Positions 4,644-61,684 of a stretch of DNA of 64,000 bases are shown here, piece by piece. The notes under the pieces are model-generated. The model worked only from the letters and a program-made list of their open reading frames with translations. It ran no database searches and was not told the DNA's origin. A program made the position numbers and the translations under genes. The stretch lies in the NCBI GenBank assembly GCA_018819925.1, contig JAHJPG010000096.1, positions 207-64,206 on the forward strand, in the 5' to 3' direction. Source of the stretch: Pseudomonadota bacterium. GTDB lineage: Bacteria; Desulfobacterota; Desulfarculia; Desulfarculales; Desulfarculaceae. Position 1 is the first letter of the stretch, and every line of letters starts with the position of its first letter.

Positions 4644-4837
4644 GTGCGTCCGGCTGCGCTCGGTCCTCGACGTAGCCCGTCAGCTACGCCTGCGTCCCTC
4701 GCTCGCCCCAGCGCGCCGCTGGGGGCAAAGCGCGTCGAGCAACAGGTTGCTTTCACCCACCTCGACTGCTCCCGGTGAAACTTGTTTGGGAGCCCAGGCC
4801 TTGGGCCGCCTTGTCTGCCGGCGGCTGGCTGTGCCGG
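4644..4837. repeat. degenerate copy of the palindromic MITE-like element core
   Basis: Shares blocks GTGCGTCCGGCTGCGC, CCTCGACGTAGC-loop-GCTACGCC and CCGCCTTGTCTGCCGGCGGCTGGCTGTGCCGG with the 18109 and 61424 elements; lacks their TIRs. Confidence 0.75.
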
Positions 4838-4956
4838 TTTTGCTTCCAAACCTCATTTAATTGTTTTTCCATAAAAATAGCATAGATACTAATGCACCGT
4901 TCGTTGGCTTCCGGCCTTAGGTGGAAAATTATGGTTGGGCCCACCGTTTTTTGCCC

Positions 4957-5011: not shown

Positions 5012-5152
5012 ATGCAAAAAGTCCTAACCAACCCGGCCGACATGAGCGCCCGCCAAATGGCGAAAGGCGCTTTCGCACCGGTGTTTGGTGGCTGGCTTTA
5101 TTGGTGGCGTTCACCCATGACGGTGCGCTCCGCCGGGGAGAAGCCAACCTAG
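5012..5152 (+). CDS. trpL: Trp-rich leader peptide (46 aa, ...GAFAPVFGGWLYWWRSP...)
   Basis: AAGGGAG RBS then ATG at 5012, TAG at 5150-5152; W-L-Y-W-W-R; followed by an intrinsic terminator and trpE. Confidence 0.85.
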   Translation: MQKVLTNPADMSARQMAKGAFAPVFGGWLYWWRSPMTVRSAGEKPT

Positions 5153-5181
5153 GCCTTTAAACTCCCAAGCCAGACAGCGAG

Positions 5182-5214
5182 CCCACCGTCAAAGTGACGG
5201 TGGGTTTTTCTTTT
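5182..5214 (+). terminator. attenuator terminator before trpE
   Basis: CCCACCGTCA-AAG-TGACGGTGGG followed by TTTTTCTTTT; the 5' arm can alternatively pair with TGACGGTG at 5118-5125. Confidence 0.9.
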
Positions 5215-5230
5215 GCCGCGAAGGATAATA

Positions 5231-6619
5231 ATGGGAAGCTTGCAAGCCTACACCAAGGAGCTTTTGGCCGACGCCTACACCCCGGTATCAGCCTATGTGA
5301 AGCTGTGCCAAGGGGAGGGAACCTCCTTCTTGTTCGAGAGCGGGGAGGGAGTGGACAGCGTGGGCCGCTACTCCATCGTGGCCTGGGAGCCCATAAGCTC
5401 CCTGCGCCTGGAGCACGGCCAGACCCTGGTGGAGCACGACGGCCGGGAGCAACAGCGCCCGGAGAACGAGTTTTTCGACGCCGCCCAGGAGGTTGGCGAA
5501 TCCTTGACCGTCCAGGAGCTGCCCCCGCTGCCCTTTGTGGGCTCCTTGATGGGCTACGTGGGCTACGAGGCGGTGCGGCTCATGGAGCGCCTGCCTCCGG
5601 GCCCGGTTCATCACCTGCCCGTGGCTTGGCTTTGCTTCCCGGCTTGCTTCGTGGTGTTCGACCATCTGCACCGCAGGCTGACCCTGGTGGCCCTGGCCCA
5701 GGGGGAGGAGGGGGGCCGGGCCAAGCTGGCCGAGATGGTGGATCGGCTGCACCGCCCCGTGCGCCTGGTGTCGCCTCCGGGCACCTTCGAGGTGGTGCCT
5801 CCTCCCCGGGAGCCTTTCCTGGCGGCGGTGGAGCGGGCCAAGGAATACATCATGGCCGGCGACATCTTTCAGGTGGTGCCATCGGCCCGCTTCACCGGCT
5901 CCACCGACATCGATCCCCTGGCGGTGTACCGTTGGCTGCGGGTCAAGAGCCCCTCGCCCTACATGTTTTTCCTGCGCTTCCCGGGATTTTCCCTGGCCGG
6001 CTCCTCGCCCGAGACCCTGGTGAAGGTCAAGGACGGCATGGTGTACCTGAGGCCCATCGCCGGCACCAAGGGCCGCTCGGCCGACCCGGAAGAAGACCTG
6101 GCCCTGGAGCGGGAGATGATGGATTCGGCCAAGGAGCGGGCCGAGCACATCATGCTGGTGGACTTGGCCCGCAACGACGCCGGCCGGGTGAGCCGCTACG
6201 GCACGGTGCAGGTTTCGCCCTACATGACCGTGGAGCGCTACAGCCACGTGATGCACATCGTCTCCCAGGTGAACGGCCAGGTGGCCCCCGAGGTTTCGGT
6301 GTGGGACGCTTTCAAGGCCTGCTTCCCGGCGGGCACCCTTTCCGGCGCGCCCAAGGTCAGGGCCATGGAGATCATCAACGAGCTGGAGGGAGTGGCCCGG
6401 GGCCCCTACGGCGGGGCGGTGGGTTGCTTTGGGCCGGGGCAATACATGGACACCTGCATCGCCATCCGCATGATCCAGTTCGACCAGGGGCGTTTCACCC
6501 TGCAAGCCGGGGCGGGCATAGTGGCCGACAGCGACCCCCAGATGGAATACGAGGAAATCTGCCACAAGGCCGCGCAGGGCCTGGCCGCCCTGAAGCTGGC
6601 CTCGGAGGGTTTGGCATGA
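5231..6619 (+). CDS. trpE: anthranilate synthase component I
   Basis: LLADAYTPVSAY, FLFESGEG..GRYS, IMAGDIFQVV, SPSPYMF, GSSPETL, PIAGTKGR, KERAEHIMLVDLARND, FPAGTLSGAPKVRAMEII; start taken at ATG 5231 after AAGGA. Confidence 0.96.
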   Translation: MGSLQAYTKELLADAYTPVSAYVKLCQGEGTSFLFESGEGVDSVGRYSIVAWEPISSLRLEHGQTLVEHDGREQQRPENEFFDAAQEVGESLTVQELPPLPFVGSLMGYVGYEAVRLMERLPPGPVHHLPVAWLCFPACFVVFDHLHRRLTLVALAQGEEGGRAKLAEMVDRLHRPVRLVSPPGTFEVVPPPREPFLAAVERAKEYIMAGDIFQVVPSARFTGSTDIDPLAVYRWLRVKSPSPYMFFLRFPGFSLAGSSPETLVKVKDGMVYLRPIAGTKGRSADPEEDLALEREMMDSAKERAEHIMLVDLARNDAGRVSRYGTVQVSPYMTVERYSHVMHIVSQVNGQVAPEVSVWDAFKACFPAGTLSGAPKVRAMEIINELEGVARGPYGGAVGCFGPGQYMDTCIAIRMIQFDQGRFTLQAGAGIVADSDPQMEYEEICHKAAQGLAALKLASEGLA

Positions 6620-7248
6620 TCTTGGTAATCGACAACTACGACTCCTTCACCTATAACATCGTCCAAGCCCTGGGCAGCCTGGGGTGCGAACTAACGGTGT
6701 TGCGCAACGACGCGGTTCAGGTGGAGGCCATAGAGGAGCTGGAACCCGAGGCCATGGTCATATCCCCGGGCCCCGGTCGGCCCGAGGACTCGGGCATAAC
6801 CTGCGCGGCCATCGAGCGCTACGCCGGGAGTTTCCCCATCCTGGGGGTGTGCCTGGGCCATCAGGCCATCGCCCAGGTGTTCGGGGCCCAGGTGGTGCGC
6901 TCAAATAAGCCCATGCACGGCAAGGTGAGCGAGGTGTTCCACGACGGCAAGGGGCTGTTCAAGGGCCTGCGCAACCCCTTCGTGGCCTGCCGCTACCACT
7001 CCCTGGTGGTGCCCGAGGCCAGCGTCAGCGCCCCCCTGATGATATCGGCCTACACCATGGAGGGCGAGGTCATGGGCCTCAGGCACCGGACCTTGCCGGT
7101 GGAGGGGGTGCAGTTCCACCCCGAATCCATCGCCACCGCCCAGGGCATGACCCTGTTCCAGAACTTTTTGCGCCAGCATCTGGGCGAGGCTCCCGTCAAC
7201 GGCCGGTCCGTCCGCGAGCCGGCCCAGGCTTCGCCGCCGCGGGCATAA
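6616..7248 (+). CDS. trpG: anthranilate synthase component II (glutamine amidotransferase)
   Basis: MILVIDNYDSFTYN, ISPGPGRP, ILGVCLGHQ, RYHSL, GVQFHPES; ATGA overlap with trpE stop. Confidence 0.96.
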   Translation: MILVIDNYDSFTYNIVQALGSLGCELTVLRNDAVQVEAIEELEPEAMVISPGPGRPEDSGITCAAIERYAGSFPILGVCLGHQAIAQVFGAQVVRSNKPMHGKVSEVFHDGKGLFKGLRNPFVACRYHSLVVPEASVSAPLMISAYTMEGEVMGLRHRTLPVEGVQFHPESIATAQGMTLFQNFLRQHLGEAPVNGRSVREPAQASPPRA

Positions 7249-17064: not shown

Positions 17065-18111
17065 ATGATTCAGGAGGCCATTGCCAAGGCGGTTAGCGGG
17101 CGCGACCTGAGCGAAGAAGAGATGATCGGGGCCATGGACCAGATCATGGAGGGCCGGGCCACCCCCGCCCAGATAGCGGCCCTGCTGGTGGCTCTGCGCA
17201 TCAAGGGGGAGAGCCTGGAGGAGATAAGCGGGGCGGCCCAGGTGATGCGGGCCAAGGCCACCCCGGTGATCTGCCGGGCGGCGGCACGGGGCGAGTTGCT
17301 GGTGGACACGGTGGGCACCGGAGGCGACGAAGCCGGCACCTTCAACGTATCCACCACCACCGCCTTCGTGGTGGCCGGGGCCGGGCTCAAGGTGGCCAAG
17401 CACGGCAACAGGGCCGTGAGCAGTTCCTGCGGGGCGGCGGACCTGCTGGAGAGCCTGGGGGTGCCCCTGGACCTGGACGCCGAACAGATAGCCCTGTGCG
17501 TGGACGAGGTGGGGGTGGGCTTTCTCTTTGCGCCCGCCCTGCACGGGGCCATGCGTCACGCCATCGGCCCCCGCCGCGAGATAGGCCTGCGCACCATCTT
17601 CAACCTGCTGGGCCCCCTCACCAACCCGGCCGGGGCCACGGTGCTGGTGGTGGGGGTCTACGACCCCAAGCTGGTGGAGCCCTTGGCCCACGTGTTGGGC
17701 CGCCTGGGCGCGGTCAGCGCCTTTGTGGTGCATGGCGAGGGCGGCCTGGACGAAATCACCATCACCGGCGCCACCCGCATGGCCCGGCTCAAGGACGGTG
17801 TGGTGGATTTGCTGGAGATAACCCCCGAGGAGGTGGGCTTGACCAGGGCCCGTCTGGAGGATGTGGCCGGTGGCACTGTGGAGCAGTGCCGCGCCCACAC
17901 CCTGGAGGTGCTTTCCGGCCGGCCCGGCCCACGGCGGGACATGGTGCTCATGAACGCGGCGGCGGCCCTGGTGGCCGCGAACCGTGCCCAGGACATGGCC
18001 CAAGGGGTGGCCCTGGCCGCCCAGGTCATCGACTCCGGCGCGGCCCTGGACAAGCTGGAGCATCTGATCTCCTTTGCCAAGGGCCTGCGCCTCAAGGCGG
18101 CGGAGGCCTAG
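17065..18111 (+). CDS. trpD: anthranilate phosphoribosyltransferase
   Basis: DTVGTGGD..TFNVST, KHGNRAVSS.CG.ADLLE, RTIFNLLGPLTNP, HGEGGLDEI. Confidence 0.97.
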   Translation: MIQEAIAKAVSGRDLSEEEMIGAMDQIMEGRATPAQIAALLVALRIKGESLEEISGAAQVMRAKATPVICRAAARGELLVDTVGTGGDEAGTFNVSTTTAFVVAGAGLKVAKHGNRAVSSSCGAADLLESLGVPLDLDAEQIALCVDEVGVGFLFAPALHGAMRHAIGPRREIGLRTIFNLLGPLTNPAGATVLVVGVYDPKLVEPLAHVLGRLGAVSAFVVHGEGGLDEITITGATRMARLKDGVVDLLEITPEEVGLTRARLEDVAGGTVEQCRAHTLEVLSGRPGPRRDMVLMNAAAALVAANRAQDMAQGVALAAQVIDSGAALDKLEHLISFAKGLRLKAAEA

Positions 18112-18369
18112 CCCGCATATTTCATGAGGGTTGGGTGACATTCAACAACAAATCCGTATTCAGAGGGTCGTTATGAAAAAAGTATTCACAATATCAATGT
18201 ACAGTTTGTACCCATCACCGGCACAGCCAGCAGCCGGCAGACAAGGCGTCTGGCAAGCGAGGGCCGCAGGCGTAGCTAAAGCTACGTCGAGGCCCGAGCG
18301 CGGCCAGCAACACCGTATGTCGGTGGCTGGCGCAGCCGGACACACGGCTCTCATGAAATATGCGGGCTA
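18109..18369. mobile_element. 261-bp MITE-like element with perfect 20-bp terminal inverted repeats (copy 1)
   Basis: TAGCCCGCATATTTCATGAG (18109-28) / CTCATGAAATATGCGGGCTA (18350-69); colinear second copy at 61424-61684; no transposase. Confidence 0.85.
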
Positions 18370-18371
18370 AG

Positions 18372-19169
18372 ATGGCCGCATCCGACCTGGGCGTGCTGGC
18401 CCGCATCCTGGAGGCCAAACGGGAGGAGGTGGCCGCGCTAAAGGCCGCCAGGCCCCTGGCCGGGCTGCGCCGGGAGGCCGAGGCCGCCCCGCCGGCCCGC
18501 CCCTTCCTGGGCGCCCTGCGGGGTCACCCCCGCGTGCCGGTGATCGCCGAGATAAAGCGGCGCTCGCCCTCCCGGGGAGAGTTGGCCCCCGGGGAGGGGG
18601 TTCAGGCCAGGGCCCGGGCCTACCAGGCCGGGGGCGCGGCGGCTCTGTCGGTGCTCACCGATATGCCCTTTTTCGGCGGCTCCTTGGAAGATCTGGCCGC
18701 CGCCCGCCAGGCGGTGGACCTGCCCGCCCTGCGCAAGGACTTCATCATCGACCCGGCCCAGATTTATGAGGCCCGGGCGGCCGGGGCCGATGCGGTGCTC
18801 TTGATCGCCGCCTCCCTGGAAGCTCCCTTGCTGGCCGAGTTGTACCACCTTGCCAAGGGCCTGGGCTTGGATGTGCTCATTGAGGTGCATAAGGCCGAAG
18901 AACTGGAGCCGGTGCTGGCCCTGGACCCGCCCCTGGTGGGCATCAACAATCGCGACCTCAAGACCCTGGCCGTGCGCCTGGACACCAGCCTGGAGCTGCG
19001 CCGACTCATCCCGGCGGGCATTACCGTGGTGGCCGAGAGCGGCATTGATGGGCCGGAGCAGGTGAGGGGGCTGCGCGCCGCCGGATTGGACGCCTTTTTG
19101 GTGGGCACCAGCCTCATGCTGGCCCCGGACCCCGCAGCCACCCTGCGCGGCCTGGTGGAGACGGCATGA
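18372..19169 (+). CDS. trpC: indole-3-glycerol phosphate synthase (alternative start 18360 inside MITE TIR)
   Basis: VIAEIKRRSPSRG, ALSVLTD..FFGGS, LRKDFII..QI.EAR..GADAVLLI, GINNRDL, VAESGI. Confidence 0.96.
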   Translation: MAASDLGVLARILEAKREEVAALKAARPLAGLRREAEAAPPARPFLGALRGHPRVPVIAEIKRRSPSRGELAPGEGVQARARAYQAGGAAALSVLTDMPFFGGSLEDLAAARQAVDLPALRKDFIIDPAQIYEARAAGADAVLLIAASLEAPLLAELYHLAKGLGLDVLIEVHKAEELEPVLALDPPLVGINNRDLKTLAVRLDTSLELRRLIPAGITVVAESGIDGPEQVRGLRAAGLDAFLVGTSLMLAPDPAATLRGLVETA

Positions 19170-60518: not shown

Positions 60519-61433
60519 CTAGCCTCGGGGGTGGTGGCGGCGATGCACCTGCACCAGCCGCTGGCGGGTGACGTGGGTGTAGACCTGGGTGGTGCCGATG
60601 TCGCTGTGCCCCAGCATGAGCTGCACGCTCCTGAGGTCGGCCCCGCCCTCCAAAAGATGGGTGGCGAAGGTGTGGCGCAGGGTGTGGGGGGTGACCGGCC
60701 CGTTTATGCCCGCCTTTTGCAGATATTTGTGGATGATTTTCCAAAGACCCATGCGGCTCAGGGAGTCGCCCCGGTTGTTCAGAAAAACCTCCTCGCGCCG
60801 CTTGCCCTTGAGCAGGCGGCTCCGGGGGCCTTCCAGATAGGCGGTCAGGACCTTGATGGCGGTTTCATGCACCGGCACCAGGCGCTGTTTGTCGCCTTTG
60901 CCATGCACCAAGAGGCAACCCACCTGGAACTGCACGTCGCCCACTCCCAGGCTGATGACCTCGCTCACCCGAAGCCCGGCGGCGTACATCAGCTCCAAAA
61001 TGGTCCGGTCCCTTTGCCCCAGATCGGTCAGTGGGTCCGGAGCGTCCAAGAGGCGTTCCACCTCGTCGCGGCTGAGGAAATAGGGCAGGCCGCCGGGCAG
61101 GCGGGGACCCACCAGGCCGGCCAGGGGGTCGGCGCCCAACTCGCCCCGGCGCAGCAGCCAGGCCACCAGGCCCCGGGCGGCGGACAGGCGCCGGGCCCGG
61201 GTGCGGGGCGAGAGCCCATTTTGCGCCGCCCGGGCCAAAAAGGCCACCATGTGCACCGATTCCACCTGTTCCCAGCCAGCCACCCCCTCCTTGAGCAAGA
61301 AGCCGGTGAGGTCGGCCAGGTCCTCGGCATAGGAGGCCACCGAGTTGGCGGCCAGGCCCCGCTCGGCGGCCAGGTGGGCCAGATAGCTGTCCACCGCCTG
61401 GTGCAAGGCCGGGGCCTGGGGATCAGCCCGCAT
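60519..61433 (-). CDS. xerD: site-specific tyrosine recombinase XerD (alternative start TTG 61406)
   Basis: ERGLA.NS..SY..DL, RDR.ILELMYAAGLRVSE, GKGDKQRLVP, PHTLRHTFATHLL.GGADLRSVQ.MLGH.DI.TTQ.YTHV. Confidence 0.95.
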   Translation of the reverse strand: MRADPQAPALHQAVDSYLAHLAAERGLAANSVASYAEDLADLTGFLLKEGVAGWEQVESVHMVAFLARAAQNGLSPRTRARRLSAARGLVAWLLRRGELGADPLAGLVGPRLPGGLPYFLSRDEVERLLDAPDPLTDLGQRDRTILELMYAAGLRVSEVISLGVGDVQFQVGCLLVHGKGDKQRLVPVHETAIKVLTAYLEGPRSRLLKGKRREEVFLNNRGDSLSRMGLWKIIHKYLQKAGINGPVTPHTLRHTFATHLLEGGADLRSVQLMLGHSDIGTTQVYTHVTRQRLVQVHRRHHPRG

Positions 61434-61684
61434 ATTTCATGAAGGCCGTGTGTCCGGCTGCGCCAGCCACCGGCATATGGTGTTGCCGGCTGCGCCCGGG
61501 CCTCGACGTAGCTATGGCTACGCCATCAGCCCTCGCTTGCCGGCCGCCTTGTCTGCCGGCGGCTGGCTGTGCCGGCGATGGGTACAAACTGTACCTCGAT
61601 AATGCGAACACTTGCTTCATAATGGCCCCATGAATACTGATCCGTTGCTAATTGCCACCCATCCCTCATGAAATATGCGGGCTA
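61424..61684. mobile_element. 261-bp MITE-like element (copy 2, inverted relative to copy 1)
   Basis: CAGCCCGCATATTTCATGAA (61424-43) / CTCATGAAATATGCGGGCTA (61665-84); colinear with copy 1, about 86% identical by manual alignment. Confidence 0.85.

Follow-up and report, generated by a model that had tools for sequence, protein, structure and literature searches.

An IS1380-type miniature inverted-repeat element at the trpD/trpC junction of a Desulfarculaceae genome and its possible role as a ribosome relay

Correia/NEMIS elements of Neisseria and ERIC/IRU elements of enterobacteria are small, TA-flanked sequences bounded by terminal inverted repeats (TIRs) that are co-transcribed in operons near stop and start codons, with orientation-dependent effects. 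The effects known for Correia and ERIC concern promoters, IHF sites and processing by RNase III/E, not an open reading frame (ORF) that relays ribosomes. A miniature inverted-repeat transposable element (MITE) of Geobacter uraniireducens called Chunjie, described by Chen et al. in 2008, is said to have inserted inside an operon whose structure was kept, and we know of no report of selection on an internal frame in this MITE. MITEs in operons are usually taken as harmless scars. A review of translational coupling from 2025 (PMC12548453) describes MIRU repeats as repeated, apparently mobile intergenic operon elements. Each has a short ORF that runs in the direction of the neighboring genes, is coupled to the gene downstream and probably serves to deliver ribosomes rather than to make a protein, which allows insertion at low cost. 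Here we analyzed a MITE that lies between trpD and trpC in a 64,000-nucleotide (nt) stretch of contig JAHJPG010000096.1 (assembly GCA_018819925.1, Desulfarculaceae). We refer to this whole stretch as the window, and coordinates without another label are positions in it.

The MITE body occupies 18111-18367 on the plus strand (257 nt, GCCCGCAT...ATGCGGGC) and is a non-autonomous IS1380-type element, with no transposase gene and with a sole ORF that has no Pfam match. A repeat finder placed the TIR arms, TA flanks included, at 18109-18137 and 18341-18369 of the same strand; by this and by direct reading, the arms are 29 nt long and 86% complementary, the outermost 20 nt (TAGCCCGCATATTTCATGAG) being perfect. 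The TA dinucleotides at 18109-18110 and 18368-18369 are the two copies of the presumed target duplication. Read between 17900 and 18600, the junction has the letters gaggcc-TAG-CCCGCATATTTCATGAG ... CTCATGAAATATGCGGG-CTA-AG-ATG-GCC. An earlier note on the window, made from its letters, had proposed that the TAG of the left TIR is the stop codon of trpD, and this is borne out by the ORF 17065-18111, whose TAG at 18109-18111 is made up of the left TA flank and G 18111, the first base of the element. On the other side, the trpC ATG at 18372 lies 2 nt past the right end of the element and its TA flank.

To compare this junction with its counterparts, we located trpC in 10 genomes of the same genus. 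The trpD/trpC junction was without the element in all 10 congeners, which makes the insertion a lineage-specific event. The closest genomes, whose TrpC is 83% identical, read ...GCGGCGGAGGCC TAG G ATG G..., that is, GCC TAG G ATG, and more distant congeners read ...GCC TGA G.... Deleting the element and one TA from the window yields GCC TAA G ATG, exactly as the earlier note had stated, which is one base off the closest relatives. The empty site that it foresaw is therefore present in the relatives, but with TAG-G-ATG rather than TAA-G-ATG in the closest of them; either the ancestor already had TAA or a G-to-A change came later. Conversely, our genome is empty at sites where its relatives carry copies, with a clean N-TA-N in five cases (L175, L187, L190, L197 and L200) and, in the others, deviations of one or two bases as expected between species. 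It is close to certain that the trp element is an insertion of an IS1380-type MITE, and a single insertion of this kind is an ordinary event.

We further investigated how such insertions are distributed, using a census of 114 non-redundant full-length copies from 11 Desulfarculaceae genomes. Neighboring genes were assigned to strands by a codon log-odds model (training set, 559 long ORFs), which replaced a GC3-based caller that had miscalled trpD. The census showed the two properties by which the earlier note had proposed to judge an operon-compatible family, namely, copies that abut stop codons and an orientation that is not random. In 66 copies both neighboring genes had the direction of the element, compared to 13 copies in which both had the opposite direction (binomial p = 1e-9), and the bias had the same direction in 10 of the 11 genomes, with G014 at 1:1. 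A stop codon was supplied to some gene by 73 of the 114 copies; in 57 of the 114 (50%), the stop of the upstream co-directional gene was formed by the left-flank TA and the first base of the element, and in 18/114 an opposite-strand gene ended in the right flank. A co-directional start codon lay within 30 nt of the right end in 68/114 copies (60%), most often 1-4 nt past the flank, whereas a divergent start lay within 30 nt of the left end in only 7/114, though both ends have the same sequence. Wedging between a stop and a start, as at trpD/trpC, was seen in 39/114 copies. The association with stop codons follows from a TA-containing target combined with the purging of insertions inside genes, but these two factors do not explain the orientation bias.

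The internal ORF of the trp copy (18173-18370, plus strand) has 65 codons and runs from ATG-AAA-AAA through a hairpin-forming module into the right TIR, which encodes its last five codons (MKYAG), to a TAA at 18368-18370. Its ATG at 18173 is preceded by a Shine-Dalgarno (SD)-like GAGGG at 18163-18167, 5 nt upstream, and the frame ends 1 nt before the trpC ATG. Across the census the frame was intact in 58/114 copies, with the start codon and the first two lysine codons conserved, and its integrity depended on genomic context. In a first set of copies, the ORF was intact in 22/34 with a close co-directional start compared to 4/21 of the others (p = 0.002), and in a second, separate set of 58 copies the corresponding figures were 26/34 and 11/24 (p = 0.026). 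When copies were pooled by the direction of the downstream gene, 54/81 with a co-directional gene and 4/25 with an opposite-strand gene had an intact ORF (odds ratio 10.5, p = 9e-6), although the two groups were equally diverged from the consensus (14.4% and 14.7%, respectively; p = 0.5). Among copies that kept the frame length and the start codon, in-frame premature stops were found in 4/62 with a co-directional downstream gene and in 9/13 of the others, and all six length variants of +/-3 nt belonged to copies with such a gene. Predicted pairing to the 3' end of 16S rRNA ahead of the ATG was stronger where the ORF was intact (-4.05 kcal/mol) than where it was not (-2.78 kcal/mol; p = 0.001). 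The block around ATG-AAA-AAA, TTATGAAAAAAG, is the best-conserved part of an otherwise variable left half, and the A-rich stretch past the ATG is unpaired in the predicted fold. In the reverse orientation, a hand check of the trp copy only showed that the frame ending at the flank stop is closed ~21 codons from its end, and so, at least in this copy, there is no equivalent reverse relay.

The dependence of ORF integrity on context suggests that the ORF is translated and that its translation may drive expression of the gene downstream. The explanation that we favor, with moderate confidence, is that this is a selfish MITE that would persist in operon junctions because its relay ORF restores translational coupling, as proposed for MIRUs. 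An IS1380-family transposase would have mobilized the MITE in the past. Its insertion, in the lineage of this genome only, hit a CTAG/CTAA site at the TA in the stop codon of trpD. The insertion retained the trpD stop (TA plus G) and displaced trpC's own ribosome-binding site by ~260 nt. The ancestral SD sequence of trpC is the GGAGG at 18102-18106 (plus strand) in the 3' end of trpD; it is found 6 nt before the trpC start in the empty-site relatives, but here it precedes the element and is ~260 nt from the trpC ATG. The element itself offers an accessible AT-rich start region that includes the SD-like G-run and ATG-AAA-AAA. Ribosomes on the relay ORF would then melt the terminal stem, terminate beside the trpC start and re-initiate there, and they may in addition shield the transcript from polarity. 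In this way the operon would go on functioning, and inverted or frame-broken insertions would be purged from operon junctions. Insertion orientation itself would be random, with survival in tight junctions depending on the passage of ribosomes to the right edge, and the frame would decay wherever there is no tight operon junction.

Several observations weigh against this explanation. Stops in the ORF frame are only mildly depleted across the family (13 seen, 19.4 expected from column frequencies) and one reverse frame is about as open as the ORF frame, so GC-rich composition accounts for much of the openness. Codon periodicity in the ORF was not found. The copies are kin by descent and some lesions recur (for example, 254-nt variants with a stop at -91), and Fisher tests consequently overstate their independence. 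In a GCGATCC subfamily the SD-like motif is lacking, yet ORFs of this subfamily are intact at operon junctions; the ORF is broken in one-third of the copies with a co-directional downstream gene, and these copies still persist; and translation of the ORF must pass a very stable hairpin.

The weak overall depletion of stops and the open reverse frame also favor a plainer account, in which the MITE is simply tolerated and any action occurs at the RNA level; as a structured intercistronic element it would influence how stable the mRNA is or how it is processed, in one orientation, an effect reported for ERIC, REP and Correia elements, and the open frame would be a GC-rich by-product. The predicted RNA structure speaks for it as well. 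In the RNA fold (-143 kcal/mol, z = -9), both TIRs pair and the GC-rich imperfect palindrome at 18218-18339 (plus strand, 122 nt; the module) forms one long hairpin with the tip CGTAGC-TAAA-GCTACG at 18271-18286, which reproduces the nested interior stems and hairpin previously read from the letters. The module is the most conserved part of the element. Furthermore, identity between orthologous copies compared to that of flanking coding DNA was 99.2% against 83-87%, 92.9% against 84% and 73%, and 92.6% against 93-94%, a pattern of conservation that points to constraint or to gene conversion among copies and that is equally in keeping with the relay explanation. The 99.2% pair (G000:C142:7940-8194 and L173 in G003:C24) comes from two species and reflects either strong constraint or a recent conversion or transfer. 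Co-oriented copies had more G:U than A:C pairs (352:236), an excess not seen in opposed copies (61:58), though as a trend only (p = 0.08). However, an effect confined to RNA leaves unexplained why nonsense and frameshift lesions build up specifically in copies without a co-directional downstream gene at equal divergence, and why the right end, rather than the identical left end, lies near start codons (68 versus 7 copies). We consider this account rather unlikely.

The same fold raises the possibility that the 29-bp terminal stem loops the element out and joins the trpD GGAGG and the trpC ATG into a split ribosome-binding site. The geometry is suitable, as the stem is separated by 2 nt from GGAGG on one side and by 2 nt from the trpC ATG on the other, and the terminal stem is present in both the minimum-energy and the centroid prediction; in phage T4 genes, small hairpins are known to bring an SD sequence and a start codon together. 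However, such a stem forms in either orientation and predicts neither the 66:13 bias nor the context-dependent integrity of the ORF, and a looped-out structure of 257 nt at a ribosome entry site would be much larger than the known cases. Hairpin bridging appears improbable.

An outward promoter in the AT-rich left half could likewise give rise to an orientation bias by re-driving trpCFBA and other downstream genes. The left half is indeed AT-rich in a genome of 63.5% GC, and the element usually points at a gene start. Against this, a search of both strands of 17900-18600 that was limited to sigma-70-like promoters detected no hexamer pair of this type, and a promoter would not need an open ORF; we regard it as a very improbable source of the bias. 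A terminator acting in the reverse orientation was also considered and is unsupported, since no terminator consensus was found on either strand of the same region.

Finally, the intact frames and the conserved start and lysine codons might be taken to indicate that the 65-codon ORF encodes a functional small protein. We rejected this protein-coding reading, which is close to refuted: codon periodicity is lacking, the third-position excess being absent from the module and only slight ahead of it; the peptides vary widely between copies; a Pfam search with the 65-codon peptide gave no match; and the palindrome dictates most of the frame.

We next consider the family to which the element belongs. 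A combination of BLAST and a fuzzy TIR search identified ~31 repeat-bounded copies in its own genome (a 4.03-Mb draft, 63.5% GC), mostly 255 nt between flanking tetramers and 75-87% identical to the trp copy, which places the repeat structure at trp far beyond chance. All 10 congeners and some neighboring genera carry the family, with many full-length copies in the congeners. Divergence from the consensus ranges from 8 to 29% (median, 14%), and the trp copy, at 9.9%, is among the least diverged. The termini are much more widespread. The exact terminal 19-mer TAGCCCGCATATTTCATGA was present in at least 119 stretches of public genomes from many phyla, including Gamma- and Alphaproteobacteria, Thermodesulfobacteriota, Planctomycetota, Verrucomicrobiota, Nitrospinota, Cloacimonadota, Bdellovibrionota and others. 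These matches were frequently at contig ends, which is typical of multi-copy repeats, and they mostly bounded elements in the MITE size range (70-405 bp), with unrelated interiors in different lineages.

A full insertion sequence (IS) with the same 19-20-nt termini was found in a Kordiimonas metagenome-assembled genome (MAG; L061, positions 5060-6646). It is 1587 bp long, has CTAG on both sides and encodes a transposase of 448 amino acids that matches PF13701 (E = 1e-157) and NF033539, the NCBIfam IS1380 equivalog (391 bits). An IS with matching TIRs, which had been suggested as a check on the element's origin, thus exists, and it belongs to the IS1380 family. The usual suspects for a TA target, IS630/Tc1-mariner elements, were rejected as the origin, because the only full-length element with these termini encodes an IS1380 transposase and no IS630 partner was seen. 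In three further MAG loci (L122, L112 and L134; as a set, from Planctomycetota, Phycisphaerales and Desulfovibrionaceae), the terminus occurs together with a transposase fragment that is 52-57% identical to the L061 transposase.

Within the host genus the parent appears to be gone. Our genome has no IS-sized TIR pair, none of the 11 genomes of the genus has an intact IS1380 transposase and at E <= 1e-20 no congener matches PF13701. In our genome, an IS1380-family transposase remnant of ~98 amino acids with one internal TGA, located outside the window (G000:C5:46935-47228), is all that is left of a possible mobilizing enzyme. With the transposase reduced to this remnant and no such match in any congener, the family in this genus represents an orphaned fossil population. 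PF13701 genes are present in two other genera of the host family, with termini that differ from those of the element. In a neighboring genus, the region G018:C1:5455900-5457162 (L215) contains a different IS1380-family IS of ~1.64 kb with related but distinct termini, CCCGGATCCTGCATGG, and the CCCGG start is thus also common to this IS.

The flanks of the copies bear on the target site. TA is present on both sides of most copies; the outer base of the left flank is variable (C > T, A, G) and that of the right flank is A or G, while the inner pair hardly changes from G on the left and C on the right and, where it does, co-varies (A with T). These statistics favor the TA-target insertion proposed previously, with a 2-bp TA duplication and with G and C probably the first and last bases of the element, since the outer bases vary and the inner pair behaves as part of the element. 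A 4-bp duplication (YTAR; CTAG or TTAA) was considered owing to the kinship of IS1380 and piggyBac and the CTAG flanks of the Kordiimonas IS. Flank pairs such as GTAG...CTAA and ATAG...CTAA argue against it, and palindromic sites give the same sequence under both models. We also note that a flanking CTAG is often CCAG on the left or CTGG on the right, the changes expected from very-short-patch-type repair of CTAG. The right-flank triplet is much more commonly TAA, TAG or TGA than a sense triplet, and the base after the right TA shows an excess of A in this genus and is predominantly G in other phyla.

In addition to its place in the element, the module is an independent repeat family. The genome contains 66 near-full copies, of which 36 lack both TIRs, and some are arranged in tandem pairs; loci beyond the window include G000:C34:7305-7545 and G000:C108:6305-6541. 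Within the window, two partial matches to it (45-56 nt, 86-87% identity) lie at ~4652-4851 on the minus strand, near the start of an aromatic amino-acid gene cluster, and may be a decayed copy. A REP/BIME system with a RAYT was rejected for the module, because our genome has no match to the RAYT (Y1 transposase) domain PF01797, which was matched in control genomes. An Rfam search of 17800-18700 was negative at E <= 1, and so was a search at E <= 0.1 of three loci (L020, L027 and L030) surrounding partial copies that contain the module. The tip motif GGCGTAS-loop-STACGTCG recurs in 182-184-bp MITEs that have the same termini and otherwise different interiors (L050, L060, L093, L098 and L104). 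It was found in 11/47 elements, from MAGs of Gammaproteobacteria, Deltaproteobacteria and Syntrophobacteria, compared to 0.25 expected by shuffling. The recurrence of the tip motif in the MITEs of other lineages makes it probable that the module is an ancient core in one branch of the superfamily, to which this lineage would have added the AT-rich start region. More tentatively, we suggest that, in Desulfarculaceae, one branch of an IS1380-type MITE superfamily that is pan-bacterial and apparently undescribed may have gained a built-in ribosome relay, consisting of an AT-rich start module and a frame that reads out through the TIR, and may thereby have colonized the stop-start junctions of essential operons, with the frame, not the peptide, under selection while a gene lies downstream.

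The remaining features of the window are as follows. The element is preceded by trpD (anthranilate phosphoribosyltransferase; 17065-18111, plus strand; PF00591 and PF02885), which ends in the element-derived TAG, and followed by trpC (indole-3-glycerol phosphate synthase; 18372-19169, plus strand; PF00218), which is intact and 83% identical to its closest relatives. The ATG at 18360 in the right TIR is in frame with trpC, as previously read, and opens an ORF of 18360-19169; nevertheless, trpC of the relatives starts at the position of 18372. The AT-rich left half also contains a small hairpin, GTACA-GTT-TGTAC (18199-18211, plus strand), which is present in the fold and whose GTGCA/TGCAC variants in the alignment keep the pairing. 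At 61425-61684 on the minus strand the window contains the MITE once more, in full length and with 87% identity to the trp copy. It has the same orientation as both flanking genes, its left flank forms the stop of the upstream gene, and its internal ORF is intact, the terminal stop now being TGA so that the frame is still stopped. Elsewhere, a pair of species (L186 in G005:C29 and L196 in G009:C23) has the element in the same intergenic locus in opposite orientations, where our genome has a 48-nt spacer (G000:C81:15486-15535); these could be independent insertions or an inversion between the TIRs.

What is new here is the family-level pattern of orientation and frame integrity in this genus, which provides population-level evidence that the direction of such an insertion and an internal, peptide-free frame decide its survival. 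If the relay explanation is true, the idea developed for MIRUs, a repeat that brings its own coupled ORF, would extend to a true MITE with TIRs and an identified transposase family, and a simple rule would describe how an essential operon like trpDCFBA can accommodate 260 nt of strong hairpin where two of its genes are coupled. The copies would then be natural plug-in intercistronic adaptors, and some of them (99% conserved, with flanks at 83-87%) may be fixed parts of operon expression. The 19-nt termini, identical across many phyla, are also useful for the annotation of MAGs, where such repeats break assemblies and distort gene calls.

Among known systems, Correia and ERIC resemble the element in their behavior in operons. 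The earlier note's comparison with them holds to that extent but not as membership, given that sequence and transposase partner are unrelated and no Rfam family matches the element; compared to Chunjie, the element has a different parent IS and different termini. PiggyBac elements have CCC ends and a TTAA target, and the ends of the present element, which begin with CCC beside a TA-containing palindromic target, recall them. IS1380 transposases form the prokaryotic outgroup of piggyBac (PMC10813416). The element shares its termini with a full IS encoding an IS1380 transposase and, unlike the ISs of that family, has no transposase itself. IS1247, a listed IS1380 member, generates a 5-bp duplication (PMC3281130), whereas the flanks here (N-TA...TA-N) are in line with a duplicated TA inside YTAR, and CTAG borders the Kordiimonas IS at either end. 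In our literature searches, no title or abstract described IS1380-derived MITEs, and no paper combined MITEs with translational coupling.

The likeness to MIRUs is one of arrangement: the ORF is co-oriented with the neighboring genes (66 versus 13), its stop lies in the right flank, and a co-directional start follows within 30 nt in 68/114 copies. The two differ in build and in insertion site. MIRUs are short, lack long TIRs and a known transposase partner, and insert at start codons with a -4 overlap, whereas the present element is a 257-nt MITE with TIRs of 20-29 nt that is linked to IS1380 and inserts at the TA of stop codons. In place of the -4 spacing, its ORF starts ~62 nt inside the element and stops, usually, 1-25 nt before the next start, with no overlap. 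In function, the MIRU is the closest case described; in origin, the element is an IS1380-family MITE.

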